From: Nemertoderma westbladi
Taxonomy: Eukaryota; Animalia; Xenacoelomorpha
Reading direction: 5' to 3'
NCBI GenBank assembly: GCA_032718475.1
Contig: JAUCBJ010007484.1
Location: 62,001-126,000, forward strand
Length of the DNA stretch: 64,000 nt
The notes under the pieces were generated by a model. The model was not told where the DNA came from. It did no database searches and saw nothing but the letters and a program-made list of their open reading frames with translations. The position numbers and the translations under genes are program-made. Below, piece by piece: positions 42,001-64,000 of the stretch; the first letter of the stretch is position 1, and every line of letters starts with the position of its first letter.

Positions 42001-43759
42001 ATTGCAGATTATAGGATGTATGTTTGAGTGTAGACTTTAGAACCATAACAGGGTGTATGATTGTAGATTGTAGGATGTATGTTTGAGTGTAGACTTTATA
42101 ACCATAACAGGGTGTATGATTGTAGGATGTAGTATGTTTGAGTGTAGACTTTAGAACCATAACAGGATGTATGATTGTAGATTGTAGGATGTATGTTTGA
42201 GTGTAGACTTTAGAACCATAACAGGGTGTATGATTGTAGGAAGTATGTTTGAGTGTAGACTTTATAACCATAACAGGGTGTATGATTGTAGGATGTAGTA
42301 TGTTTGAGTGTAGACTTTAGAACCATAACAGGGTGTATGATTGTAGGATGTATGTTTGAGTGTAGACTTTAGAACCATAACAGGGTGTATGATTGCAGAT
42401 TATAGGATGTATGTTTGAGTGTAGACTTTAGAACCATAACAGGGTGTATGATTGTAGATTGTAGGATGTATGTTTGAGTGTAGACTTTATAACCATAACA
42501 GGGTGTATGATTGTAGGATGTAGTATGTTTGAGTGTAGACTTTAGAACCATAACAGGATGTATGATTGTAGATTGTAGGATGTATGTTTGAGTGTAGACT
42601 TTAGAACCATAACAGGATGTATGATTGTAGATTGTAGGATGTATGTTTGAGTGTAGACTTTATAACCATAACAGGGTGTATGATTGTAGGATGTAGTATG
42701 TTTGAGTGTAGACTTTAGAACCATAACAGGATGTATGATTGTAGATTGTAGGATGTATGTTTGAGTGTAGACTTTAGAACCATAACAGGGTGTATGATTG
42801 TAGGAAGTATGTTTGAGTGTAGACTTTAGAACCATAACAGGGTGTATGATTGTAGGATGTATGTTTGAGTGTAGACTTTAGAACCATAACAGGGTGTATG
42901 ATTGTAGGATGTATGTTTGAGTGTAGACTTTAGAACCATAACAGGGTGTATGATTGCAGATTATAGGATGTATGTTTGAGTGTAGACTTTAGAACCATAA
43001 CAGGGTGTATGATTGTAGGATGTAGTATGTTTGAGTGTAGACTTTAGAACCATAACAGGATGTATGATTGTAGATTGTAGGATGTATGTTTGAGTGTAGA
43101 CTTTAGAACCATAACAGGGTGTATGATTGTAGGATGTAGTATGTTTGAGTGTAGACTTTAGAACCATAACAGGATGTATGATTGTAGATTGTAGGATGTA
43201 TGTTTGAGTGTAGACTTTAGAACCATAACAGGGTGTATGATTGTAGATTGTAGGATGTATGTTTGAGTGTAGACTTTAGAACCATAACAGGGTGTATGAT
43301 TGTAGATTGTAGGATGTATGTTTGAGTGTAGACTTTAGAACCATAACAGGGTGTATGATTGTCGATTGTAGGATGTATGTTTGAGTGTAGACTTTAGAAC
43401 CATAACAGGGTGTATGATTGTCGATTGTAGGATGTATGTTTGAGTGTAGACTTTAGAACCATAACAGGGTGTATGATTATAGGATGTATGTTTGAGTGTA
43501 GACTTTAGAACCATAACAGGGTGTATGATTGTAGGATGTATGTTTGAGTGTAGACTTTAGAACCATAACAGGGTGTATGATTGTAGATTGTAGGATGTAT
43601 GTTTGAGTGTAGACTTTAGAACCATAACAGGGTGTATGATTGTAGATTGTAGGATGTATGTTTGAGTGTAGACTTTAGAACCATAACAGGGTGTATGATT
43701 ATAGGATGTATGTTTGAGTGTAGACTTTAGAACCATAACAGGATGAATGGTTGTAGGAT
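1..43759. repeat. 52-bp tandem satellite array, block 1 (continues beyond the left edge)
   Basis: Head-to-tail monomer GACTTTAGAACCATAACAGGGTGTATGATTGTAGGATGTATGTTTGAGTGTA (52 bp; 15 G vs 4 C on +; no CpG). Recurrent variants: +GTA (55 bp), +GATTGTA (59 bp), GGG/GGA, TGTAT/TGAAT, GGATG/GGAAG, TAGAC/TAGTC, AAGGTAAA. Confidence 0.99.
43749..43759 (+). repeat. 11-bp target-site duplication GGTTGTAGGAT (partner 44458-44468; also 47468-47478/48548-48558)
   Basis: Present on both sides of each insertion and only once at the matching empty site (38998-39008). Confidence 0.93.
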
Positions 43760-43948
43760 CAGAACAGAACAGCCTGGGCCAGGCATTACGGGGTTACAGT
43801 GGTTTCTACAACACTGTATAATAGTTATTCTTTGAGGCATGGTTGCCATTTCTGGCAGAGCACGGGAATAACGAACGAACTTGTACTTTCCTTTGAGTGA
43901 TTAGTTGGCCTAAATATGATCTCCCACTCCACAGCGAAATATTCATCC

Positions 43949-44045
43949 GGTCTGGTAGCTCAGTACAGTCACCCGGCTGATGATAACCAGAAGTTTGAAA
44001 CCTAGGTACCGGGTTCGAGCCCCAATAGGGCCGGTTGATATTTTT
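43949..44045 (+). promoter_or_regulatory. tRNA-like internal Pol III promoter (A box, B box) with T5 terminator, enclosing the hammerhead; repeated in all five units (+371, +3719, +4090, +4461)
   Basis: A-box-like TAGCTCAGT (43956-43964); B box GGTTCGAGCCC (44012-44022); acceptor-like stem GGTCTGG (43949-43955)/TAGGGCC (44026-44032) at tRNA spacing; TTTTT at 44041-44045. Confidence 0.62.
43971..44014 (+). ncRNA. Type I hammerhead ribozyme, copy 1
   Basis: Stem I ACCCGG/CCGGGT; core CTGATGA (43977-43983); stem II AAC/GTT with loop CAGAA and a U-U closing mismatch; GAAA (43997-44000); palindromic stem III ACCTAGGT; GTA triplet with predicted cleavage after 44008. Confidence 0.88.
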
Positions 44046-44341
44046 CGCTATGGAGAGCATTATCATATTGTCCTATCTACATTATATATTTAATTCACCG
44101 TCACTCACCCCACAACAATTCATTTATTATTATTAATTAACAGCCTGGGCCAGGCATTACGGGGTTACAGTGGTTTCTACAACACTGTATAATAGTTATT
44201 CTTTGAGGCATGGTTGCCATTTCTGGCAGAGCACGGGAATAACGAACGAACTTGTACTTTCCTTTGAGTGATTAGTTGGCCTAAATATGATCTCCCACTC
44301 CACAGCGAAATATTCATCCGGTCTGGTAGCTCAGTACAGTC

Positions 44342-44385
44342 ACCCGGCTGATGATAACCAGAAGTTTGAAACCTAGGTACCGGGT
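44342..44385 (+). ncRNA. Type I hammerhead ribozyme, copy 2
   Basis: Same sequence as copy 1 (ACCCGGCTGATGATAACCAGAAGTTTGAAACCTAGGTACCGGGT), offset +371. Confidence 0.88.
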
Positions 44386-44457
44386 TCGAGCCCCAATAGG
44401 GCCGGTTGATATTTTTCGCTATGGAGAGCATTATCATATTGTCCTATCTACATTATA

Positions 44458-47400
44458 GGTTGTAGGATGTATGTTAGAGTGTAGGCTTTAGAACCATAAC
44501 AAGGTAAATGATTGTAGGAAGTATGTTTGAGTGTAGACTTTAGAACCATAACAGGATGTATGATTGTAGGATGTATGTTTGAGTGTAGACTTTAGAACCA
44601 TAACAGGGTGTATGATTGTAGGATGTATGTTAGAGTGTAGACTTTAGAACCATAACAGGGTGTATGATTGTAGGATGTAGTATGTTTGAGTGTAGACTTT
44701 AGAACCATAACAGGGTGTATGATTGTAGGAAGTATGTTTGAGTGTAGACTTTAGAACCATAACAGGGTGTATGATTGTAGGATGTAGTATGTTTGAGTGT
44801 AGTCTTTAGAACCATAACAGGGTGTATGATTGTAGGATGTATGTTTGAGTGTAGACTTTAGAACCATAACAAGGTAAATGATTGTAGGAAGTATGTTTGA
44901 GTGTAGACTTTAGAACCATAACAGGATGTATGATTGTAGGATGTATGTTTGAGTGTAGACTTTAGAACCATAACAGGATGTATGATTGTAGGATGTATGT
45001 TTGAGTGTAGACTTTAGAACCATAACAAGGTAAATGATTGTAGGAAGTATGTTTGAGTGTAGACTTTAGAACCATAACAGGATGTATGATTGTAGGATGT
45101 ATGTTTGAGTGTAGACTTTAGAACCATAACAAGGTAAATGATTGTAGGAAGTATGTTTGAGTGTAGACTTTAGAACCATAACAGGATGTATGATTGTAGG
45201 ATGTATGTTTGAGTGTAGACTTTAGAACCATAACAAGGTAAATGATTGTAGGAAGTATGTTTGAGTGTAGACTTTAGAACCATAACAGGATGTATGATTG
45301 TAGGATGTATGTTTGAGTGTAGACTTTAGAACCATAACAGGGTGAATGATTGTAGGATGTATGTTTGAGTGTAGACTTTAGAACCATAACAGGGTGTATG
45401 ATTGTAGGAAGTATGTTTGAGTGTAGACTTTAGAACCATAACAGGATGTATGATTGTAGGATGTATGTTTGAGTGTAGACTTTAGAACCATAACAGGATG
45501 TATGATTGTAGGATGTATGTTTGAGTGTAGACTTTAGAACCATAACAGGATGTATGATTGTAGGATGTATGTTTGAGTGTAGACTTTAGAACCATAACAA
45601 GGTAAATGATTGTAGGAAGTATGTTTGAGTGTAGACTTTAGAACCATAACAGGATGTATGATTGTAGGATGTATGTTTGAGTGTAGACTTTAGAACCATA
45701 ACAAGGTAAATGATTGTAGGAAGTATGTTTGAGTGTAGACTTTAGAACCATAACAGGATGTATGATTGTAGGATGTATGTTTGAGTGTAGACTTTAGAAC
45801 CATAACAGGGTGAATGATTGTAGGATGTATGTTTGAGTGTAGACTTTAGAACCATAACAGGGTGTATGATTGTAGGAAGTATGTTTGAGTGTAGACTTTA
45901 GAACCATAACAGGATGTATGATTGTAGGATGTATGTTTGAGTGTAGACTTTAGAACCATAACAGGATGTATGATTGTAGGATGTATGTTTGAGTGTAGAC
46001 TTTAGAACCATAACTGGGTGTATGACTGTAGGATGTATGTTTGAGTGTAGACTTTAGAACCATAACAGGGTGTATGATTGTAGGATGTAGTATGTTTGAG
46101 TGTAGACTTTAGAACCATAACAGGGTGTATGATTGTAGGATGTATGTTTGAGTGTAGTCTTTAGAACCATAACAGGATGTATGATTGTAGGATGTATGTT
46201 TGAGTGTAGACTTTAGAACCATAACAGGGTGTATGATTGTAGGATGTATGTTTGAGTGTAGACTTTAGAACCATAACAGGGTGTATGATTGTAGGATGTA
46301 TGTTTGAGTGTAGTCTTTAGAACCATAACAGGATGTATGATTGTAGGATGTATGTTTGAGTGTAGACTTTAGAACCATAACAGGGTGTATGATTGTAGGA
46401 TGTATGTTTGAGTGTAGACTTTAGAACCATAACAGGGTGTATGATTGTAGGATGTATGTTTGAGTGTAGACTTTAGAACCATAACAGGGTGTATGATTGC
46501 AGATTATAGGATGTATGTTTGAGTGTAGACTTTAGAACCATAACAGGGTGTATGATTGTAGGATGTAGTATGTTTGAGTGTAGACTTTAGAACCATAACA
46601 GGGTGTATGATTGTAGATTGTAGGATGTAGTATGTTTGAGTGTAGACTTTAGAACCATAACAGGGTGTATGATTGTAGGATGTAGTATGTTTGAGTGTAG
46701 ACTTTAGAACCATAACAGGATGTATGATTGTAGATTGTAGGATGTATGTTTGAGTGTAGACTTTAGAACCATAACAGGGTGTATGATTGTAGGATGTAGT
46801 ATGTTTGAGTGTAGACTTTAGAACCATAACAGGATGTATGATTGTAGATTGTAGGATGTATGTTTGAGTGTAGACTTTAGAACCATAACAGGGTGTATGA
46901 TTGTAGATTGTAGGAAGTATGTTTGAGTGTAGACTTTAGAACCATAACAGGGTGTATGATTGTAGATTGTAGGATGTATGTTTGAGTGTAGACTTTAGAA
47001 CCATAACAGGGTGTATGATTGTAGATTGTAGGATGTATGTTTGAGTGTAGACTTTAGAACCATAACAGGGTGTATGATTGTCGATTGTAGGATGTATGTT
47101 TGAGTGTAGACTTTAGAACCATAACAGGGTGTATGATTGTCGATTGTAGGATGTATGTTTGAGTGTAGACTTTAGAACCATAACAGGGTGTATGATTATA
47201 GGATGTATGTTTGAGTGTAGACTTTAGAACCATAACAGGGTGTATGATTGTAGGATGTATGTTTGAGTGTAGACTTTAGAACCATAACAGGGTGTATGAT
47301 TGTAGATTGTAGGATGTATGTTTGAGTGTAGACTTTAGAACCATAACAGGGTGTATGATTGTAGATTGTAGGATGTATGTTTGAGTGTAGACTTTAGAAC

Positions 47401-47478
47401 CATAACAGGGTGTATGATTATAGGATGTATGTTTGAGTGTAGACTTTAGAACCATAACAGGATGAATGGTTGTAGGAT
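44458..47478. repeat. 52-bp satellite, block 2 (between the two insertions)
   Basis: Same monomer and orientation; resumes in register at the duplicated GGTTGTAGGAT. Confidence 0.99.
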
Positions 47479-47689
47479 CAGAACAGAACAGCCTGGGCCA
47501 GGCATTACGGGGTTACAGTGGTTTCTACAACACTGTATAATAGTTATTCTTTGAGGCATGGTTGCCATTTCTGGCAGAGCACGGGAATAACGAACGAACT
47601 TGTACTTTCCTTTGAGTGATTAGTTGGCCTAAATATGATCTCCCACTCCACAGCGAAATATTCATCCGGTCTGGTAGCTCAGTACAGTC

Positions 47690-47733
47690 ACCCGGCTGAT
47701 GATAACCAGAAGTTTGAAACCTAGGTACCGGGT
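47690..47733 (+). ncRNA. Type I hammerhead ribozyme, copy 3
   Basis: Same sequence as copy 1, offset +3719. Confidence 0.88.
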
Positions 47734-48060
47734 TCGAGCCCCAATAGGGCCGGTTGATATTTTTCGCTATGGAGAGCATTATCATATTGTCCTATCTACA
47801 TTATATATTTAATTCACCGTCACTCACCCCACAACAATTCATTTATTATTATTAATTAACAGCCTGGGCCAGGCATTACGGGGTTACAGTGGTTTCTACA
47901 ACACTGTATAATAGTTATTCTTTGAGGCATGGTTGCCATTTCTGGCAGAGCACGGGAATAACGAACGAACTTGTACTTTCCTTTGAGTGATTAGTTGGCC
48001 TAAATATGATCTCCCACTCCACAGCGAAATATTCATCCGGTCTGGTAGCTCAGTACAGTC

Positions 48061-48104
48061 ACCCGGCTGATGATAACCAGAAGTTTGAAACCTAGGTACC
48101 GGGT
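48061..48104 (+). ncRNA. Type I hammerhead ribozyme, copy 4
   Basis: Same sequence as copy 1, offset +4090. Confidence 0.88.
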
Positions 48105-48431
48105 TCGAGCCCCAATAGGGCCGGTTGATATTTTTCGCTATGGAGAGCATTATCATATTGTCCTATCTACATTATATATTTAATTCACCGTCACTCACCC
48201 CACAACAATTCATTTATTATTATTAATTAACAGCCTGGGCCAGGCATTACGGGGTTACAGTGGTTTCTACAACACTGTATAATAGTTATTCTTTGAGGCA
48301 TGGTTGCCATTTCTGGCAGAGCACGGGAATAACGAACGAACTTGTACTTTCCTTTGAGTGATTAGTTGGCCTAAATATGATCTCCCACTCCACAGCGAAA
48401 TATTCATCCGGTCTGGTAGCTCAGTACAGTC

Positions 48432-48475
48432 ACCCGGCTGATGATAACCAGAAGTTTGAAACCTAGGTACCGGGT
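48432..48475 (+). ncRNA. Type I hammerhead ribozyme, copy 5
   Basis: Same sequence as copy 1, offset +4461. Confidence 0.88.
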
Positions 48476-48547
48476 TCGAGCCCCAATAGGGCCGGTTGAT
48501 ATTTTTCGCTATGGAGAGCATTATCATATTGTCCTATCTACATTATA

Positions 48548-51500
48548 GGTTGTAGGATGTATGTTAGAGTGTAGGCTTTAGAACCATAACAAGGTAAATG
48601 ATTGTAGGAAGTATGTTTGAGTGTAGACTTTAGAACCATAACAGGATGTATGATTGTAGGATGTATGTTTGAGTGTAGACTTTAGAACCATAACAGGATG
48701 TATGATTGTAGGATGTATGTTTGAGTGTAGACTTTAGAACCATAACAAGGTAAATGATTGTAGGAAGTATGTTTGAGTGTAGACTTTAGAACCATAACAG
48801 GATGTATGATTGTAGGATGTATGTTTGAGTGTAGACTTTAGAACCATAACAGGATGTATGATTGTAGGATGTATGTTTGAGTGTAGACTTTAGAACCATA
48901 ACAAGGTAAATGATTGTAGGAAGTATGTTTGAGTGTAGACTTTAGAACCATAACAGGATGTATGATTGTAGGAAGTATGTTTGAGTGTAGACTTTAGAAC
49001 CATAACAAGGTAAATGATTGTAGGAAGTATGTTTGAGTGTAGACTTTAGAACCATAACAGGATGTATGATTGTAGGATGTATGTTTGAGTGTAGACTTTA
49101 GAACCATAACAGGATGTATGATTGTAGGATGTATGTTTGAGTGTAGACTTTAGAACCATAACAAGGTAAATGATTGTAGGAAGTATGTTTGAGTGTAGAC
49201 TTTAGAACCATAACAGGATGTATGATTGTAGGATGTATGTTTGAGTGTAGACTTTAGAACCATAACAAGGTAAATGATTGTAGGAAGTATGTTTGAGTGT
49301 AGACTTTAGAACCATAACAGGGTGTATGATTGTAGGATGTATGTTTGAGTGTAGACTTTAGAACCATAACAGGATGTATGATTGTAGGAAGTATGTTTGA
49401 GTGTAGACTTTAGAACCATAACAGGATGTATGATTGTAGGAAGTATGTTTGAGTGTAGACTTTAGAACCATAACAGGATGAATGATTGTAGGAAGTATGT
49501 TTGAGTGTAGACTTTAGAACCATAACAGGATGTATGATTGTAGGAAGTATGTTTGAGTGTAGACTTTAGAACCATAACAGGGTAAATGATTGTAGGATGT
49601 ATGTTTGAGTGTAGACTTTAGAACCATAACAGGGTGTATGATTGTAGGATGTATGTTTGAGTGTAGACTTTAGAACCATAACAGGGTGTATGATTGTAGG
49701 ATGTAGTATGTTTGAGTGTAGACTTTAGAACCATAACAGGGTGTATGATTGTAGGAAGTATGTTTGAGTGTAGACTTTAGAACCATAACAGGATGTATGA
49801 TTGTAGGAAGTATGTTTGAGTGTAGACTTTAGAACCATAACAGGATGAATGATTGTAGGAAGTATGTTTGAGTGTAGACTTTAGAACCATAACAGGATGT
49901 ATGATTGTAGGAAGTATGTTTGAGTGTAGACTTTAGAACCATAACAGGATGTATGATTGTAGGAAGTATGTTTGAGTGTAGACTTTAGAACCATAACAGG
50001 GTGTATGATTGTAGATTGTAGGATGTATGTTTGAGTGTAGTCTTTAGAACCATAACAGGATGTATGATTGTAGGAAGTATGTTTGAGTGTAGACTTTAGA
50101 ACCATAACAGGGTGTATGATTGTAGATTGTAGGATGTATGTTTGAGTGTAGTCTTTAGAACCATAACAGGGTGTATGATTGTAGGATGTATGTTTGAGTG
50201 TAGACTTTAGAACCATAACAGGATGTATGATTGTAGGAAGTATGTTTGAGTGTAGACTTTAGAACCATAACAGGATGTATGATTGTAGGAAGTATGTTTG
50301 AGTGTAGACTTTAGAACCATAACAGGATGTATGATTGTAGGAAGTATGTTTGAGTGTAGACTTTAGAACCATAACAGGGTAAATGATTGTAGGATGTATG
50401 TTTGAGTGTAGACTTTAGAACCATAACAGGGTGTATGATTGTAGATTGTAGAATGTATGTTTGAGTGTAGACTTTAGAACCATAACAGGGTGTATGATTG
50501 TAGGATGTAGTATGTTTGAGTGTAGACTTTAGAACCATAACAGGGTGTATGATTGTAGATTGTAGGATGTATGTTTGAGTGTAGACTTTAGAACCATAAC
50601 AGGGTGTATGATTGTAGGATGTATGTTTGAGTGTAGACATTAGAACCATAACAGGGTGTATGATTGTAGATTGTAGGATGTATGTTTGAGTGTAGACTTT
50701 AGAACCATAACAGGGTGTATGATTGTAGGATGTATGTTTGAGTGTAGTCTTTAGAACCATAACAGGGTGTATGATTGTAGATTGTAGAATGTATGTTTGA
50801 GTGTAGACTTTAGAACCATAACAGGGTGTATGATTGTAGGATGTAGTATGTTTGAGTGTAGACTTTAGAACCATAACAGGGTGTATGATTGTAGATTGTA
50901 GGATGTATGTTTGAGTGTAGACTTTAGAACCATAACAGGGTGTATGATTGTAGGATGTATGTTTGAGTGTAGACATTAGAACCATAACAGGGTGTATGAT
51001 TGTAGATTGTAGGATGTATGTTTGAGTGTAGACTTTAGAACCATAACAGGGTAAATGATTGTAGGATGTATGTTTGAGTGTAGACTTTAGAACCATACCA
51101 GGGTGTATGATTGTAGGATGTATGTTTGAGTGTAGACTTTAGAACCATAACAGGGTGTATGATTGTAGATTGTAGGATGTATGTTTGAGTGTAGTCTTTA
51201 GAACCATAACAGGGTGTATGATTGTAGATTGTAGGATGTATGTTTGAGTGTAGACTTTAGAACCATAACAGGGTAAATGATTGTAGGATGTATGTTTGAG
51301 TGTAGACTTTAGAACCATACCAGGGTGTATGATTGTAGGATGTATGTTTGAGTGTAGACTTTAGAACCATAACAGGGTGTATGATTGTAGGATGTAGTAT
51401 GTTTGAGTGTAGACTTTAGAACCATAACAGGGTGTATGATTGTAGGATGTATGTTTGAGTGTAGACTTTAGAACCATAACAGGGTGTATGATTGTAGATT

Positions 51501-55707: not shown

Positions 55708-56397
55708 TGTAAGAGCGGTTGCTATGCTCTTGTGTATAAAACAATAAGATGATCTATGTGATTGTAATATGTTCAACTATAGTTGGATTTCACCCAGTTT
55801 ACACGGTTACGTCCCATAAAGAAGAATAATTTGTTTATTTGATTGGGAATTAGGAGCATATTTATTATAGAAAATATATAAGATAATAATATACGATTAT
55901 AAGCGGTAAGGGGTAATAAGATAACGGAAACATAAGAACATTAATACATAATAAGAGATCTAATAATATAAACGTAAAATATCGTAAGAGTCAAGAATAC
56001 AAAGTAATAAAGAGTGTTAATAGGGGGAGTTTCCGTTTGGGAAACTGCGGAAATGAGACCAACTATAGTGAATGAGTAATGTTGAGCTCAGTAAGTTGTA
56101 GAAATACAGTGAAGTAATAATAGGGGTGACAGTGTGGTGGGCCTTGATTGGTTAATGGGTAATAAGGGATTGTAGCGCAGTGGAGATACCTACCTAATAT
56201 GGCTGAACAGGAGTGAAGGGAAGAATACAGCTGTTTATCTGTATAGGATAAACGGCTGTGAATGGGGGCAGCCACTAATGGTCGAATGAGTATATTGGAG
56301 ATGAGATAGATATTGGTTTGCAACAATAAGCTGGGAGAATGGGCGGTAATGTAATGATAATATATTTTTTATTGTTTGAGAGAGACCCGCCACTACA
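55708..56397 (-). repeat. 3' LTR of the BEL/Pao element (690 bp)
   Basis: Begins TGTAAGAGCGG at the satellite breakpoint and ends CCGCCACTACA (imperfect terminal inverted repeat, 8/11). Directly abuts a polypurine tract. The second LTR is not in the window, so the boundaries are inferred. Confidence 0.82.
55834..55866 (-). promoter_or_regulatory. Candidate polyadenylation signals in the LTR
   Basis: Two minus-strand AATAAA (55834-55839, 55861-55866), about 130-160 nt from the LTR 3' end; the AT-rich context lowers specificity. Confidence 0.4.
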
Positions 56398-56406
56398 GTC
56401 CCCCTT
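56398..56406 (-). other. Polypurine tract (plus-strand primer)
   Basis: Minus strand reads AAGGGGGAC immediately before TGTAGTGG of the LTR. Confidence 0.75.
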
Positions 56407-56575
56407 AAAAATTTTCAAATTTTTACACGATATCTGGGCTTCCTCAAAACATCTTAAAAATTTCAAATAATCGAAGGAACATCTTGTCCCACTCAAATAA
56501 TATTAATCTATGGCCTTTATATTTTACCTCGGTGGACGAACAGGACGTACAAAACAACGATTACACACAGGACAT

Positions 56576-56740
56576 ACATTTAAAAGTATGGGTAAACCAT
56601 ACGAATGACAGATAAACATAAAGGATACATATATGACGTACATTTAAAAGTATGGTGTTGCCATACGAGTGAAACAGACGTACAGAAGACAACACATATA
56701 ACACAGAGGACAAACATTTAAAAGTATGGATATACCATAC
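56576..56740. repeat. Three copies of ACATTTAAAA-GTATGG-N5-CCATAC hairpin motif in the retrotransposon 3' UTR
   Basis: Copies at 56576-56602 (loop GTAAA), 56640-56666 (TGTTG) and 56714-56740 (ATATA). Confidence 0.85.
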
Positions 56741-57398
56741 AAAGGAGATAAGAAGCTCCTTGGTATCTAAAGGGTCATTGAAGGTCAAAGATTAACATTA
56801 TTAATACAATACTTAAGGAAGGTAATTTGTTCAGTAATGTATTTGACGAAGTTAAGATACGTGTAATATCCAAATAATGTATCGTCAATTTTGTAAAATT
56901 AAGTTAAAATTGTTTATAATATATCTCATCTTAAGGACACTATGTAAATAGGAAACGATAAACAATTATGACACAATGATTTAGGATTATAGATTAGGTT
57001 GTTAGGAGTGTGGTGATAGATTAGTTAGAGTAACTACTATAAGGTGAATAAATTCAAAATACTTATGAATTACACCACTACATTACATTGTTTACAATGT
57101 ACCCTGTAAACTCGACCATCACCAATTGACACGGTTAATACTTAATAATATCTTTACCAATGGATCTCTAGTTATAATTTTATAGTTTGTTGCTTATAGT
57201 TCCATTTAACCGAGTTCAATATGCATCCTTCAGTGGTAGTCAACTAAGATGTGGACGACCATCACATCATACCCAGGAATTTTGGTAGCTAAAACCTAAA
57301 AGGAAATTAAGGGAAATTATTTAATATTTGATAAGTATACAAAGTATGCTGGTTTATTAGTTAATTTAATTATAATTAATTTTAGTAGTAGTTTATTG

Positions 57399-60300
57399 TT
57401 ACTTATTTATTTTCTCTAAGAGGCATAGTTTATCAAGTGGTCTTTTGTAAACTCCCAAGGAGGTTTTTACTTCAACTGATCTAATTAACCCCACATCATC
57501 AGGGTATACTTGCGTTATACGACCCACACTCCAACTACTGCGTGTTTGACCTTCATCTACAAGCAATACGACATCGCCTACTGCAAGGTTGTTGCGAACA
57601 CGTGTCCACTTCTGTCTTGATTGAAGTGTCACTAAGTATTCGCGTACCCAGCGGGTCCAAAAATGATTGGCTAGTAACTGAGCCTGGCGCCATTTACGAG
57701 TTGAGTATGTATCACTGTCGTAGATGGGACCTGGTGGTAAATTGTAAGCAGGGTGCTGTAATAGAAGGTGGTTCGGAGTTAATATTTCATCAGCTTTAGG
57801 GTCATCGGTACTAAGGCACAAGGGGCGGCTGTTTAGAATGCACTCTACTTCTGCTAATGATGTCACTAACACGTCATCTGTGACAAGAGAATTTCCAAGG
57901 ACCTGAAACAGAACTTGTTTGATTGAACGGATCAGCCGTTCATATACACCACCCATATGGGGGGCGTACGGTGTTATAAATTTCCATGTAATGCCCTTTG
58001 GGCGCAGGGCAATATCGATCTGATGTTCCCATAGTTCCAGGTTTTGCCGTAATTCTGAATCGGCACCTACGAAGTTTCCCCCATTGTCTGAAACTATTTC
58101 CTTTGGCGAACCTCTCCGTGCTTTAAAACGGGAGAACACATTGATAAAGGCATCAGCTGATGCATCAGCAGCTACATCGAGGTGTACTGCTCTACAGTTA
58201 AGGCACGTAAAGATAAAGGCATAACGCTTTATAGAACCTCTCCCGTATTTGACCTTTAGTGGACCAAACATATCAACGGCTGAAAACGTAAATGGCGGCT
58301 CATATGGGGTCAGTCTAGAGGACGGCAATGGCGCCATAAGCTGATTCACACGTGGAGCCTTACATTGCCGACATTTAAAGCACTTACGTATTAAAGACTT
58401 GCAGAAAGTGATAAGGCCAGGGATCCAATAGGATTCCCTTACCTTGGCAACTACTTGGTTGGGACCGGCATGTAATAAATAGATGTGCCAGTGCCATACT
58501 ATGACATTTGTAAGTGGGTGTAACTTACTCAAAATTATAGGGTGTTTTGTATCGTAGGATACTGGGGTGGAGGTAATGCGGCCACCTACCCGCAATAAAC
58601 CATCCTGAGTTAGGATTGGCGCTAGATTAGCTAGTGGGCTTGAGCAAGCTACTGGGGATGAATGCAGTAACATTTGAATTTCGTTGGGATAGGATTGCCT
58701 CTGTGAGAAATAAATTAGACATCGTCCAGCATGGTGACGTTCACTTACCGAGACAAATTTCCCTTTAAGATTTAAGACCGAATTTGGATTTAAAGAATAC
58801 TTGCAAAGACGTAAGATCCATGCGAACAGAGTCTGTAATTTATTCCATGACGAATGTTTAGCTATAAGTGAACCTATAGCATTAAATGCTGTGTTAGAAT
58901 CAATGTGGACATTAAGAATTATTTCAGTGTCAGGATTGTGGTATGGTGTCTGTTCTTCGACAACTATGTCAAACCAGAAGTCTGTCATGGTGATGTCATC
59001 GTTATAATCAATATCAGATGATACCAATATATGAGAAGTTAACACATCTGGGTTATTGATTAGTGTATTAGTGATAGTTTCTGGGCATATGGTTGACACT
59101 GTCGTCCATGTTTCCTCAGGCTGAACGAGAAAAGGAGGCCCATGCCACCACTTCTGTGAATTAATGAGCTTGACTGCTGTAAGCCCACGAGTAATGTCAT
59201 CTGCAGGGTTTAAATGACCAGGTACATGTTGCCATTGTGAACTGGTTGTACGATCAAGGATATACTTAGCGCGGTTGTGAACAAAACATCGAAATTGCTT
59301 GACGGTGTTGTTTATGTACCCAAGTACGACAGTAGAGTCTGTCCAAAAATAACATTTAGCGATTGGTAAGTCTAGGGATTCTAACACAGTTTCACTTACC
59401 TGTGCTGCTAAAACTGCAGCTTGGAGCTCTAATCGAGGAACTGAATGTCCAGAGGCTGTACGAACTAACTTACCTTTGCTGAAAACGAAAGATGAATTTA
59501 TTTCATTTTCACTTACAGATCGGATGTACAATACTGTACCGTAGGCCACTTTAGAAGCGTCTGAGAAAATATGTAGCTGGTAGTTGATTGGACCCGAATG
59601 GACGGGGATGTACATCCTAGGGATTTCCAGTTCGCTGAGCATAGGAAGTTGATCTCGCCACTTCATCCATTGACGTGCTGTATCTGGTGGGAGTGGGGTA
59701 TCCCAGTCTAATTCCATTGACCACATTTTTGCTATAACTAATCGACCTGCTATGATTAAAGGCAAGATAAAGTTAATGGGATCGTACAATGAGCTAGTCA
59801 AAGAGACGCATCCCCGTTTAGTTAATGGTGTGTTTTTAAGCACATAGGAGAATATGAAGTTATCTGAATTTGTGTCCCAGGAAACTCCAAGGGCACGGGT
59901 TATAGGAAGATTATCAAAATCTAAGTTAATGAAGGATTTTGCCTTTTCTGAATCGGGAAAGGCATCTAGGAATTGTCTAGAATTGGAGGCAAATTTTGTG
60001 AGGTGAAAGCCACCTAATTTGAGGCAATCTACCATCCCAGAAGCGATGTGAATAGCTTCGGAGACAGATGCTGCACTTTTGAGGCCATCATCCACATACA
60101 TGTGGCGATTAATGGCATCAATCACCTCCGGGCTAAAATGACTGGCATTATCAATAGCAGTTCGTTTGACTGATCCTGATGCCACAAAGGATGAATCGCA
60201 TGCACCAAATATATGTACTAACATTTGGTAAGTCTCCACTGTGGTAGAGCCATCGGGCTGCCACAAAAAGCGAAGACTATCGGCATCGCCTGGTGTGACT

Positions 60301-60518
60301 CTCACCTGGTGGTACATTTCCTTTATGTCGCAGGTGAAAGCCACAGGATATTGTCGAAAACGCAAAATAATTCCAATAAGGCTACTGGTGAGATTAGGAC
60401 CTTCTAACAATTGACTATTGAGGGACATCCCTCGGTATAAGGCAGCAGCATCATTTACGATCCTTATCTCACCAGGCTTGTTGGGATTCTCAACAAAATG
60501 ATGGGCGAGGTAATATGT
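57399..60518 (-). CDS. pol: BEL/Pao Pol: reverse transcriptase, RNase H, integrase (track ORF 57399-60428; frame is open up to the TAG at 60519-60521)
   Basis: RT: [43 protein letters not shown], YVDD. RNase H: [31 protein letters not shown]. Integrase: H-X4-H...CFKC, [25 protein letters not shown]. C-terminal [10 protein letters not shown]...LAVGDVVLL typical of Pao elements. Confidence 0.95.
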   Translation of the reverse strand, partial: [1039 protein letters not shown]

Positions 60519-63500
60519 CTATGGCCCTGGGGTTATCTCACATGGTAGGAGTTTGCGAGCATAACCCTTCAAGACATAATCGTCTATTTTTTGTTGATAA
60601 AGGGCATGGATATGTGGCTTACGATGTAGCTGACGGATTAAATATGCGAAACGGGATTTTGCCATATTATAATTATTAATTAATAATGGAGGTGAGTCCC
60701 TCCAGAGCATTCCTACCTGATAGTGACCATCCACTAGACGTATTGACTTAGAAAACATTTCTAATGCTTTTAAGTCATCCATGGATGGTGATAGAAACTC
60801 ATCGATGAGGGGTGAGGGTTTTGGGTCTGAAGGTGAACTTTCAGCAAAACTCTGAAATTTCATCCATTGAGTGACCTGTTTAGAGATGTCGCGGTCTGTG
60901 CAAGGGTCATTGACTGTGATGTGATTAAACTGTGTTACTGTACTATTGGGTTCAACTGCTTTACAGCTCACAGGACCGATTATGCACCATCCAAATGGTG
61001 TCCTAATTGCAGAGGGATTAGGGTTCCCAGCCTTTGGGAATACATGTACATCCCTAGCTAGGGCCTCAGGATGGTTACCACCAACCAGAATTGTGATTGA
61101 TGGGATATCAAGATTAGGGCAGCATGTCACATATGGCAATATGTGATCTAAGTGCTGGAGCGTTTTAGGACACAGTTGTGTTACATCATATGAGTAATCC
61201 CTTTTGAAATCGGGGACTACAAATACTTGAGGCATGTTGATGACAAAATTGGGTTTAATTTCTGGCTGTCCTTTGATAGGTGAGATACTACATGATATTT
61301 CCCCAGGAGAAACAGACATATTTGATTGGAAGACAGTGCTGACATTAAGAGAAGTAGTTTCGGGAATGATACCAAGAGTATCGGTTACATTTTTGTCAAC
61401 AAATGTCGCAGTAGACCCATCATCAAGAAGTGCATATGTAGTGAGTGATTTATTGGCAATGCATATGGTTACTGGGACTACTGATAACCATACGGGTTGT
61501 ACTTTGGCAATTGATAAGTGTACAGACATGGAATTGTTTGAACTTTGTGCGCTGATGTTGCCACCTTTAGATTTTGGTCGGTCGGTGTGGCTACCAGAGC
61601 TCTCACTACTCGCAGGGTCCTTGACACTCTGTTTAGATTTATTGGAATCGGAAGCCTTTGAAAATACATACGCACCATGGAATAAGGTATTGTGTTTTCC
61701 TTTGCAATCGGGAGCAAAACACACATCAACAGATTTGCAGTCCGGAATAAGATGTGAATTTGCAAAACATCGAAAGCACAACTGGTATGAACGTACGCAG
61801 TTTAACCGTTCTTGTGGTGTAAGATTTAGAAAGGTTTTGCATTGACTGATTTTATGCCCATGTTGTTTACAGCATGGGCAGGGGTGGGATTTTAACACTT
61901 TGGGATTATTACCGACCCCTGAAGTAACTGGGATATGTACTTCAGTGGCCAAGGTTGTAACCTTTGGGCGAGGCTCAAATGAGCCACGGTCAACTATACT
62001 ATAAACAGGGTCATTTATAATATCGGCTTCATTGTCAAGGAAGTCCGCAAGCTCATTGAGAGTGGGTTCCCTTTGAGAACGAGCACGAATACCGTGAGCA
62101 ACTCGACGCCATCTTGCAAGATGCTCAGTTGGTAGGTTAGAGGCAAGTTGTTTGAGGTTCGAGGTAGCATTCATTTCATGACTGTTGCTTAAGTGCTGAA
62201 GAACGGTAACCTTACTTCTTACCTTATCAGCATAGTCACGAAGTTTTTCCCTTTTTATTCCAAAAGATCCATTTAAATCTACAGAAGAGACGAGATCTCT
62301 TAGTGTAGCTTCAATGATTACACTAGGGTGACCATAACGTTTATGCAAGGTCTCCCAAGCCTTAGTGTAACCATTTGAAAGTCCTTCATAAGCCTCAACT
62401 AGCTCATGAGGTTTGCCAGACGTGTATTGTAAAAGGTACTGCAATTTTTCCACATCAGAAAAATCACGTAAGTCGATATGAGCCTTAAAGGTAGCCACAA
62501 AAGATATATACTTAGCTGAATCACCACTCAATTTTGTAGGTTCAGGGCGTGGCAAGGATAGCTTAGTATTTAATTTGCCTAAGGCATCTAGGGTGTGAGA
62601 GAGACCAGAATCTTGTAAGGCAAAATCTGATGGTGCACCATTGTGTGGGTTGGATAATGGGGACCCTCCAAAATAGACACCACTTGTTACTATAGTGGGG
62701 TCACCTGCAATGGAAATAGAAGATCTATCATTAGGGTTCATGGATGTAATACTCGATAGTGCAGAAATAGGAGCATTTCTATCGAAATATACTGGACCAT
62801 TGTGTCCCCCCATGGCAAATTGTACATGATTTGAATTAGGAGCATTTACTGCAGACTGACCAACAGAGATTGAACTAGCAGTTACAGATGCTACGGGATT
62901 ACATAAAAATCCAGGAGTCTCACTGTATTGATACTGTAGGCCAGTGGTACTATATGGGAAATATTGTCCCTCGTCATATAAGTTTTGTCCCCCCATGGTA
63001 AATGATGGGACGTGAGATATATTATGGGTATTGTATCGCGCAGAAGAGGCAAACTTGGGGTGCCTCTCTCGTGCAGATTGTCCCGGAACATTGCTGGGAC
63101 ATGATGGGACACTTTGACCTATGGGGTGGGAAGGGTGGGGGAATTTTCCCCCTATGGGGCATGTTGAAACATATATAGATGGACATGTAAGGCTATTTAC
63201 ATCAAGAGATGTAAATGCCACAGGCTCCTCTTGACTATATTGTTCCCGGCTGGTAGTAAGATAGGATGGGACATATTGTCCTCCAGAAGTATAGGATGAA
63301 TAAATGCATTGTCCGGCCGAGGAACTTCTTGGATATCTTTGAGAATACTGACTTAAGGAAGATGCAGTATTAAAAAGCGATGTTGGGGGTATAAAGAGAC
63401 CAGTTGTACAAAAATTACCTAGTGGGATAATTTCAGAAACTCTACTATTAATTAGCGCACTAGTAGGTCTTATAGGAGAAGTAAGAGAAAAAATTGGAAG

Positions 63501-63998
63501 TTGAGATGACACTACTGATGTTGTTTCTACAGTGACAGGGTAGGAATGAGATTGACTAGACTGCAGATTATTTTGTGCTGATTCATAGGAATCTGAGGCA
63601 CTCACATTAACAGGTAGGCCCGTGGTTGCTATGGCAACAGGGTCGACTGGAGACTCTGATTGGATCCTTGTATTAACAGTCACATTATTGTTAAGATTAC
63701 TTTCAGTTTGTACACTAATTGGTACGTCATACGTGGGAGATCTTTTTGGTGATTGTAATAGCGCAGAAGCTACATAATCTGCTTCTGCTTCTCCAAATTC
63801 AGGTGATTTCAACTCTAAAGCTTCTTCAAGTGCTGCAAGTGCAAGAGCATCGCGTAGGCCACGTTCCTTTGCCAAGCGAGTAATTTCTTTCTGTTGCCGC
63901 TCTGATTTTTGTAATATCAATGTGTCAGCCTGATCTGCCTGAGCAGCTGCTCCTGACTGCTCGAGCTGTAGCAGGAGTAATTTTCGCTTGACTTTGGC
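60519..63998 (-). CDS. gag: BEL/Pao Gag-protease portion of the polyprotein (5'-partial; frame open to the window edge)
   Basis: Gag core LPRPEPTKLSGD...EKLQYL...AWETLHKRYG. Knuckles CPCCKQHGHKISQC, CFRCFANSHLIPDC, CFAPDCKGKHNTLFH. Aspartic protease YALLDDGSTATFV. No stop between 63920 and the edge, so the track's TTG start is not the real start. Confidence 0.93.
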   Translation of the reverse strand, partial: AKVKRKLLLLQLEQSGAAAQADQADTLILQKSERQQKEITRLAKERGLRDALALAALEEALELKSPEFGEAEADYVASALLQSPKRSPTYDVPISVQTESNLNNNVTVNTRIQSESPVDPVAIATTGLPVNVSASDSYESAQNNLQSSQSHSYPVTVETTSVVSSQLPIFSLTSPIRPTSALINSRVSEIIPLGNFCTTGLFIPPTSLFNTASSLSQYSQRYPRSSSAGQCIYSSYTSGGQYVPSYLTTSREQYSQEEPVAFTSLDVNSLTCPSIYVSTCPIGGKFPHPSHPIGQSVPSCPSNVPGQSARERHPKFASSARYNTHNISHVPSFTMGGQNLYDEGQYFPYSTTGLQYQYSETPGFLCNPVASVTASSISVGQSAVNAPNSNHVQFAMGGHNGPVYFDRNAPISALSSITSMNPNDRSSISIAGDPTIVTSGVYFGGSPLSNPHNGAPSDFALQDSGLSHTLDALGKLNTKLSLPRPEPTKLSGDSAKYISFVATFKAHIDLRDFSDVEKLQYLLQYTSGKPHELVEAYEGLSNGYTKAWETLHKRYGHPSVIIEATLRDLVSSVDLNGSFGIKREKLRDYADKVRSKVTVLQHLSNSHEMNATSNLKQLASNLPTEHLARWRRVAHGIRARSQREPTLNELADFLDNEADIINDPVYSIVDRGSFEPRPKVTTLATEVHIPVTSGVGNNPKVLKSHPCPCCKQHGHKISQCKTFLNLTPQERLNCVRSYQLCFRCFANSHLIPDCKSVDVCFAPDCKGKHNTLFHGAYVFSKASDSNKSKQSVKDPASSESSGSHTDRPKSKGGNISAQSSNNSMSVHLSIAKVQPVWLSVVPVTICIANKSLTTYALLDDGSTATFVDKNVTDTLGIIPETTSLNVSTVFQSNMSVSPGEISCSISPIKGQPEIKPNFVINMPQVFVVPDFKRDYSYDVTQLCPKTLQHLDHILPYVTCCPNLDIPSITILVGGNHPEALARDVHVFPKAGNPNPSAIRTPFGWCIIGPVSCKAVEPNSTVTQFNHITVNDPCTDRDISKQVTQWMKFQSFAESSPSDPKPSPLIDEFLSPSMDDLKALEMFSKSIRLVDGHYQVGMLWRDSPPLLINNYNMAKSRFAYLIRQLHRKPHIHALYQQKIDDYVLKGYARKLLPCEITPGP

Positions 63999-64000
63999 AC

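Follow-up and report, generated by a model that had tools for sequence, protein, structure and literature searches.

A predicted hammerhead ribozyme nested in a tRNA-derived body within a retrozyme-type repeat of Nemertoderma westbladi

A 97-nt stretch in the genome of Nemertoderma westbladi (43949-44045) can be read in two ways, as the ends of a tRNA with their A- and B-box-like motifs and as a hammerhead ribozyme lying between them. A preliminary description had proposed that one piece of DNA might serve both as promoter and, once transcribed, as catalyst. This raises the questions of whether the double reading exceeds chance, what kind of element carries it and how a ribozyme came to occupy the middle of a tRNA. 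We analysed the stretch within a window of 64,000 nt (contig JAUCBJ010007484.1, positions 62,001 to 126,000), to which all coordinates refer. The nested tRNA/hammerhead geometry is real and well above chance. We consider it likely that the locus is a 371-bp repeat of the non-LTR retrozyme type, with a predicted hammerhead inside a body derived from a tRNA (likely tRNA-Ile) and with tRNA positions 44-54 serving as the predicted cut strand, and that it spread through self-cut RNA and a Penelope-type reverse transcriptase.

The 97-nt motif is no one-off, since five copies, all identical, occur in the window. Positions 1-55703 are filled by a 52-bp satellite (∼1,043 copies) with strong G skew and higher-order duplications, and two non-satellite islands break it, at 43750-44459 and 47469-48549. 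These islands hold ∼1.86 and ∼2.86 copies of the 371-bp unit, respectively, and each is bordered on both sides by an 11-bp satellite variant that occurs 8 times, compared with 691 times for the common variant. As an empty site at 38996 matches both flanks of the island, the 11-bp repeats represent a target-site duplication. The islands share their junctions and their flanks are identical over 551 bp on the left and 150 bp on the right (random satellite pairs, median 27), and therefore a single insertion was later duplicated. Array 2 is a DNA-level duplicate of array 1 together with its satellite and involved no second insertion; the higher-order duplications of the satellite also copied the retrozyme island. 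The following features (all on the + strand) describe the insertion:

43749-43759, +, left target-site duplication of 11 bp, a rare satellite variant identical to 44458-44468
43760-44457, +, array 1, with 8 extra letters followed by ∼1.86 units of 371 bp
43768-44138, +, one 371-bp unit (42% GC), its register set by the 5′ end of the array
44458-44468, +, right target-site duplication of 11 bp, the pair of 43749-43759
47479-48547, +, array 2, ∼2.86 units with the same junctions as array 1

Beyond the satellite, at 55709-64000 on the minus strand, lies a Pao/BEL-type LTR retrotransposon. It has open frames of 1,159 and 1,039 codons with one stop between them, and Pfam matches to DUF1759, Peptidase_A17, Integrase_H2C2 and DUF5641. 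Pao/BEL elements are animal elements.

Within the unit, the tRNA-like and ribozyme-like features interleave as follows:

43949-44033, +, tRNA-derived body (tRNA positions 1-73), ∼12 nt longer than a class I tRNA, 38.5 bits
43956-43964, +, A-box-like motif (tRNA 8-16), matching in position, with the following GG absent
43971-44014, +, predicted type I hammerhead (Rfam HH9), between the A and B boxes
43971-43976 with 44009-44014, +, hammerhead stem I, 6 pairs
43975-43996, +, stretch in register with tRNA 27-48 (anticodon arm and variable loop), the best ungapped placement of the arm profile, with GAT at 34-36
43977-43983, +, hammerhead core, complete against the consensus
43985-43987 with 43993-43995, +, hammerhead stem II, a U.U at the base and 3 pairs with a 5-nt loop, weak
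43997-44000, +, GAAA, a consensus element of the hammerhead
44000-44007, +, hammerhead stem III, an 8-nt palindrome predicted to be stable as a dimer only
44004-44014, +, letters shared by tRNA 44-54 (variable loop and 5′ strand of the T-stem) and the hammerhead substrate strand, from the sequence, HH9 and the tRNA profile
after 44008, +, predicted cut site, between the A box and the B box
44012-44022, +, B-box-like motif (T-loop), intact, with 1.5-2.3 bits at each T-loop position and minor variants at 44017 and 44022
44035-44086, +, 3′ tail, closing where inserted copies have their fixed end; the arrays in the window stop at the equivalent place (44457 and 48547)
44041-44045, +, run of five T (T5), a candidate Pol III terminator and the sole sense-strand run of at least 4 T in the unit

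Similarity to tRNA was assessed with a two-part profile of both ends, built from 61 mostly bacterial tRNAs, none chosen by the element's own pattern (5 of 66 were dropped: one without a T-loop match, two pattern-picked and two misregistered). The best site in the unit starts at 43949 and scores 38.5 bits with a 39-nt spacer between the ends, compared with 27-28 nt in class I tRNAs. This score was reached in none of 3,000 shuffles of the unit (maximum 18.9) and in none of 20,000 that left the hammerhead letters in place (maximum 22.5), an 8.3-kb control sequence peaked at 4.3 bits, and 20 of the 61 training tRNAs score lower than the element. The tRNA geometry claimed for both ends is therefore confirmed, and the significant likeness to tRNA without which that claim would fall is present, well clear of the highest shuffle. 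As previously described, the acceptor stem pairs at 6 of 7 positions counting G-U. Only 5.3% of 11,130 mismatched tRNA end pairs do as well, so a single gene is the probable source of both ends. The alleles 43951 C and 44026 C turn acceptor wobbles into Watson-Crick pairs, 44031 G breaks one pair, and three of the five T-stem pairs are left. A pattern derived from the element's ends found 46 loci in the GTDB collection, all 46 called as tRNA, which mainly shows that the pattern is tRNA-specific. Together, these results support a tRNA origin for both ends. A working tRNA is ruled out by the lack of a cloverleaf: ARAGORN and Rfam (gathering threshold) called no tRNA in the window, Rfam by E-value returned HH9 and three chance-level families only and no tRNA, and the fold with acceptor stem and T-arm lies 7.2 kcal/mol above the minimum.

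The middle of this body matches Rfam HH9 at 43971-44015; the score, 19.7 bits (E = 0.0068), falls short of the gathering threshold of 52. In the stem III region the sequence agrees fully with the HH9 consensus (GAAACCU..AGGU). The match sits between the boxes, consistent with the proposal that a hammerhead takes the place of the tRNA middle. CUGANGA, GAAA, an NUH cut site, three stems and an open stem I, as in type I hammerheads, are all present. Two isolated cores are predicted to pair through the palindrome and swapped stem I strands (−33.6 kcal/mol), with stem II predicted in another form. Such a dimer design is described for animal hammerheads in the accessible part of PMC4209133, and an active axolotl ribozyme that carries a U.U at the foot of helix II in that of PMC7229834.

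Variation among copies was examined in contigs of four runs from 3 samples, where 43920-44086 contains 24 positions with variants at a level of at least 2%; run X5, an RNA set by guess only, had 3 contigs on the stretch, and these were set aside. The 36 core and stem positions considered (a set excluding N7, 10.1, loop 2 and the cut base) include no variable one, compared with 5.2 expected (P = 0.0018, four runs). Adding 10.1 gave P = 0.013, adding N7 and the cut base 0.045, taking the whole span 0.35 and counting common variants only 0.14, all of these being rough values because the copies are related. The one core variant seen falls on the free position 7 (43981), and a T>A variant at 43984 would close the U.U pair of stem II. 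In folding predictions, uncalibrated against known active retrozymes, the active form lies above the minimum by 7.4 kcal/mol in the 97-mer; in a tandem transcript, the double form lies 17 kcal/mol above it. A rival helix of 43951-43956 with 43986-43991 has a probability of 0.49-0.96. Across natural alleles the gap is 5.8-9.0 kcal/mol in the 97-mer and ∼3 for the bare core. The window's own G at 43968 is a rare allele, with C making up about 96-100% of summed depth, and C shrinks the predicted gap (e.g. from 7.4 to 5.8 kcal/mol in the 97-mer). An extension of stem I by pairing of GCTC in the A box with GAGC in the B box had also been suggested; it is possible on paper, and the predictions give it no part, with probability 0.0 in the folded 97-mer and no use in the forced hammerhead fold.

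The two readings meet in 11 letters, which form the 3′ strand of stem III, the cut site and the 3′ strand of stem I, and the first three letters of the B box (from 44012) lie within stem I. The claims that ribozyme and tRNA body share nucleotides and that the predicted cleavage site lies at the variable loop were thus both upheld. Since 67 of 106 tRNAs carry GUH at positions 46-48, tRNA variable loops appear to be ready-made cut motifs. As a separate observation, positions 44-54 of a tRNA-Pro(TGG) match the ribozyme substrate strand at all paired positions; speculatively, a tRNA of this kind might be bound in trans by the enzyme half. Overall, nesting of the ribozyme between A and B boxes is supported by the sequence. 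The literature searched, which lay outside repeat databases (Repbase/Dfam), subscription journals and supplements, yielded no account of a hammerhead placed between the two boxes; the supplementary alignments of PMC7229834 and 10.64898/2026.07.22.740005 may contain similar units. The accessible sections of PMC10886601, PMC4758252 and PMC5680766 describe no nested form. A scan for the nested motif in viral contigs gave 14 loci, nine with an ARAGORN tRNA and none with a hammerhead layout by eye, and a stricter pattern gave 0 loci. Five loci (four near-identical) were obtained from metagenomes, none of them a tRNA or with hammerhead stems by eye. As the scanned collections are mostly prokaryotic or viral, these blanks say little about animals.

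Which tRNA contributed the body was approached from the ends and from the middle. Clusters of eukaryote-type tRNAs occur on small contigs within bacterial genome bins, probably through contamination. Among 31 tRNAs from contigs judged eukaryote-type (3 rows dropped), Ile(AAT) accounts for five of the top seven end identities (35, 35, 35, 33 and 32 of 45, the three at 35 being pattern-picked), while Lys(TTT) reaches 33/45 and a pattern-picked bacterial Lys 36/45. When three segments are combined, Ile(AAT) matches at 44/62 compared with 41/62 for the best non-Ile tRNA and takes four of the top five places among 69 rows, although the comparison tRNAs are non-host and the two top rows were fetched with an element-derived pattern. 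At the free middle positions, the best Ile is equalled by 8 of 64 non-Ile tRNAs.

In the middle, 43975-43996 is identical to tRNA-Ile(AAT) at 13/22 positions, the in-register anticodon is the second GAT (43982-43984), and the hammerhead core matches Ile positions 29-35 at 4/7. The element contains tRNA positions 44-48 twice, 12 nt apart. Aligned globally to Ile, the 39-nt middle gave no significant match (P = 0.33-0.64), and the local test and the in-register test with an arm profile, which left out intron-bearing and long-arm tRNAs, were devised after that failure. The best fit of the arm profile (tRNA 27-48) is at 43975, which is the register fixed by the 5′ end. For this offset P is 0.0004, whether Ile tRNAs are in the training set or left out, compared with 0.14-0.35 at any offset, and the scores are low (1.7 and −2.2 bits). 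With hammerhead-required letters held fixed, the local ungapped test gave 20-21 points for three pattern-picked Ile(AAT) rows (P = 0.005-0.015 on any diagonal) and 18 points for the two rows chosen independently of the pattern (P = 0.05 over all diagonals; 0.006-0.01 close to the register). For all five rows, local matches near the register had P = 0.0014-0.0096, and the top 12 of 90 local matches all lie no more than two places off it. These data argue with moderate strength for descent of stem II from the anticodon arm and hint weakly at Ile ancestry. The likeness of the core to tRNA-Ile noted in the preliminary description therefore held in part: Ile(AAT) leads the combined comparison, but by a small margin and with no backing from the global test of the middle.

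The boxes themselves gave a mixed picture. The A and B boxes had been placed at their tRNA positions, and this stands for positions 8-16 and for the B box, but the A box lacks the D-loop GG that follows it in 112 of 112 tRNAs. None of the nine A-box positions has a variant listed at 2%, which is not significant, and among the box positions that lie outside the hammerhead, variation is at the level of background (2/17 compared with 2.4 expected, with low power). The T5 run begins 7 nt past the tRNA end; it fits a Pol III gene, but would stop transcripts before the tail that is copied. Because Pol III transcripts would end there, multimers would need read-through or an outside promoter. We put the present Pol III function of the predicted promoter at near even odds. 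An AT-rich, TATA-like stretch is also found at 43911-43917, 32-38 bases upstream of the tRNA start.

Contig joints indicate how copies are made. In each of runs X1-X3, 32-38 contigs leave the unit near 44086 into unrelated DNA, and 25-30 contigs start at 43970, preceded by sequence that is unrelated; at stem I, several joints pass to the opposite strand. A short form of ∼120 bp (43965-44086), comprising hammerhead, B box and tail with no A box and sharp at both ends, occurs in many contigs, and summed contig depth, which is no copy number and is given no weight here, climbs about tenfold or more from 43900 to 44000. In run X4, three contigs join the tail (44035-44131) at 44035, just past the tRNA end, to another upstream sequence that all three share; this may be a second family that has the tail, including its T5 run, in common with the first. 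The fixed 3′ end and shortened 5′ ends point to copying of sense RNA by target-primed reverse transcription, and since the arrays exceed one unit, a circular or multimeric template is needed. RtcB closure and Penelope-type mobilisation are described for other retrozymes in the accessible parts of PMC7229834 and 10.64898/2026.07.22.740005. We propose the following cycle. The A and B boxes would likely recruit Pol III and most transcripts would stop at the T5 run, with multimers arising from read-through or from an outside promoter. In a multimer, adjacent hammerheads would pair via their 8-nt palindromes, and cuts after 44008, which part the A box from the B box, would release a 371-nt monomer with the B-box half first and the A-box half last. 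Closure of this monomer into a circle, by RtcB in other retrozymes, would rebuild the tRNA body. Reverse transcription would then begin at the fixed end near 44086 and continue past one unit, to yield the arrays of 1.9-2.9 units and the short copies without an A box.

In its layout the element resembles the metazoan non-LTR retrozymes, which, in the accessible text of PMC7229834 and 10.64898/2026.07.22.740005, are tandem units of 170-400 nt with GC below 50%, a type I hammerhead with a short palindromic stem III, a target duplication above 4 bp and a strongly self-paired monomer. All the sequence-level features tested were found here: tandem units of 150-450 bp, each with a type I hammerhead, a duplication above 4 bp, GC below 50% and a self-paired monomer (cut to cut, 44009-44379; folding z −3.33, equalled by none of 100 shuffles). 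The known retrozymes are described without a tRNA body or Pol III promoter, whereas this ribozyme lies inside a tRNA-derived body; 'Pol III' and 'SINE' appear 0 times in the accessible text of PMC7229834, and 'tRNA' and 'promoter' 0 times in that of 10.64898/2026.07.22.740005. The schistosome Sm-alpha/Sj-alpha elements, according to the available part of PMC2770079, are likewise tRNA-related repeats with a type I hammerhead and tandem copies. Pol III transcription and multimer cleavage are reported for them. As had been noted beforehand, Sm-alpha combines promoter and hammerhead without nesting them: in the portion of the review PMC6765202 available, they lie in series and the promoter is at the 3′ end of the cut monomer (the accessible part of PMC8490949 adds nothing on this order). 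That serial order is absent here, where the hammerhead (43971-44014) lies between an A box at 43956 and a B box at 44012 and shares 11 letters with the tRNA body. Axolotl HHR_Amex2, compared by description from the accessible text of PMC7229834, is also type I with a U.U at the helix II base and cleaves better as a dimer, but no tRNA context is reported for it. TRNA-derived SINEs share the tRNA head with A- and B-box-like motifs, the target duplication and 5′-shortened copies; unlike them, the element has its head mid-unit in a tandem, no A-rich tail at the array end and an anticodon region that reads as a ribozyme. From its sequence, then, the element is of the retrozyme/Sm-alpha kind and departs from it in the predicted nesting of the hammerhead between the boxes.

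How the ribozyme entered the tRNA body allows two accounts. We lean, tentatively and with less than even confidence, towards remodelling of the tRNA itself with a gain of 12 nt, rather than a swapped-in ribozyme module. Spelled out, a hammerhead would have been born from a tRNA-Ile gene whose DNA is still a Pol III promoter: three changes would make tRNA 29-35 the core, the anticodon arm would become stem II, the 12-nt gain would supply GAAA and stem III, and the variable loop would turn into the cut site. We regard this complete scenario as rather unlikely. Alternatively, a ready-made module from a Penelope pseudo-LTR or another retrozyme may have replaced tRNA 17-43 by template switching, with stem I adapted later and the in-register likeness arising by chance, an account that we find doubtful. 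The identity of the stem III region with the HH9 consensus is in line with it, AGGT at 44-47 in 40 of 106 tRNAs offers ready microhomology, and neither the global nor the any-offset test of the middle was significant. Template-switching module exchange is described for mollusc SINEs in the accessible part of PMC4758252, and the three run X4 contigs carry the tail behind other upstream sequence. However, a swap calls for two crossovers and for the tRNA T-stem to serve as the 3′ strand of stem I, and both the arm profile, which lands exactly in the 5′-end register, and the clustering of the best local matches within two places of it speak against a swap.

It is also quite possible, though we rate it somewhat below evens, that the tRNA body is a relic with no present promoter role and that transcription of the unit comes from read-through that starts outside it, the route proposed for retrozymes generally. 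The missing GG, the lack of excess conservation in the boxes and the many copies that begin at 43965-43970, beyond the A box, are consistent with this, as is a review whose accessible text states that retrozymes seem to carry no promoter (PMC7761336). Against a relic, the two ends still score in the range of true tRNAs despite the decay of T-stem and acceptor stem, the A box is free of listed variants (not significantly so), the T5 run is placed 7 nt past the tRNA end, and shortened copies are expected as dead ends. We think it improbable that the hammerhead is dead or a mere look-alike, with the repeat spreading as a plain tRNA-derived SINE or by DNA-level duplication. The predicted misfolding, the Rfam score under the family threshold and the DNA-level origin of array 2 fit such a reading, but all core positions agree with the consensus, variants avoid core and stems, and the head-to-tail units, absence of an A-tail and long target duplication fit retrozymes as described in the accessible text of PMC7229834.

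For the biology of metazoan retrozymes, in which the available part of the review PMC7761336 sees no promoter, this element carries a predicted promoter of the tRNA type around its ribozyme. Because the predicted cut falls between the A and B boxes, promoter-bearing copies are expected only from circular or multimeric RNA. The flanking tRNA fixes the register, so that the ancestor of each ribozyme position would become readable once host tRNAs and sister families are aligned, and the question of a single versus repeated origin of genomic hammerheads becomes testable on one 85-nt stretch. If birth from tRNA-Ile is true, a genomic hammerhead would have arisen independently and in a way that can be traced, with cleavage splitting the promoter and circles or multimers alone transmitting it.
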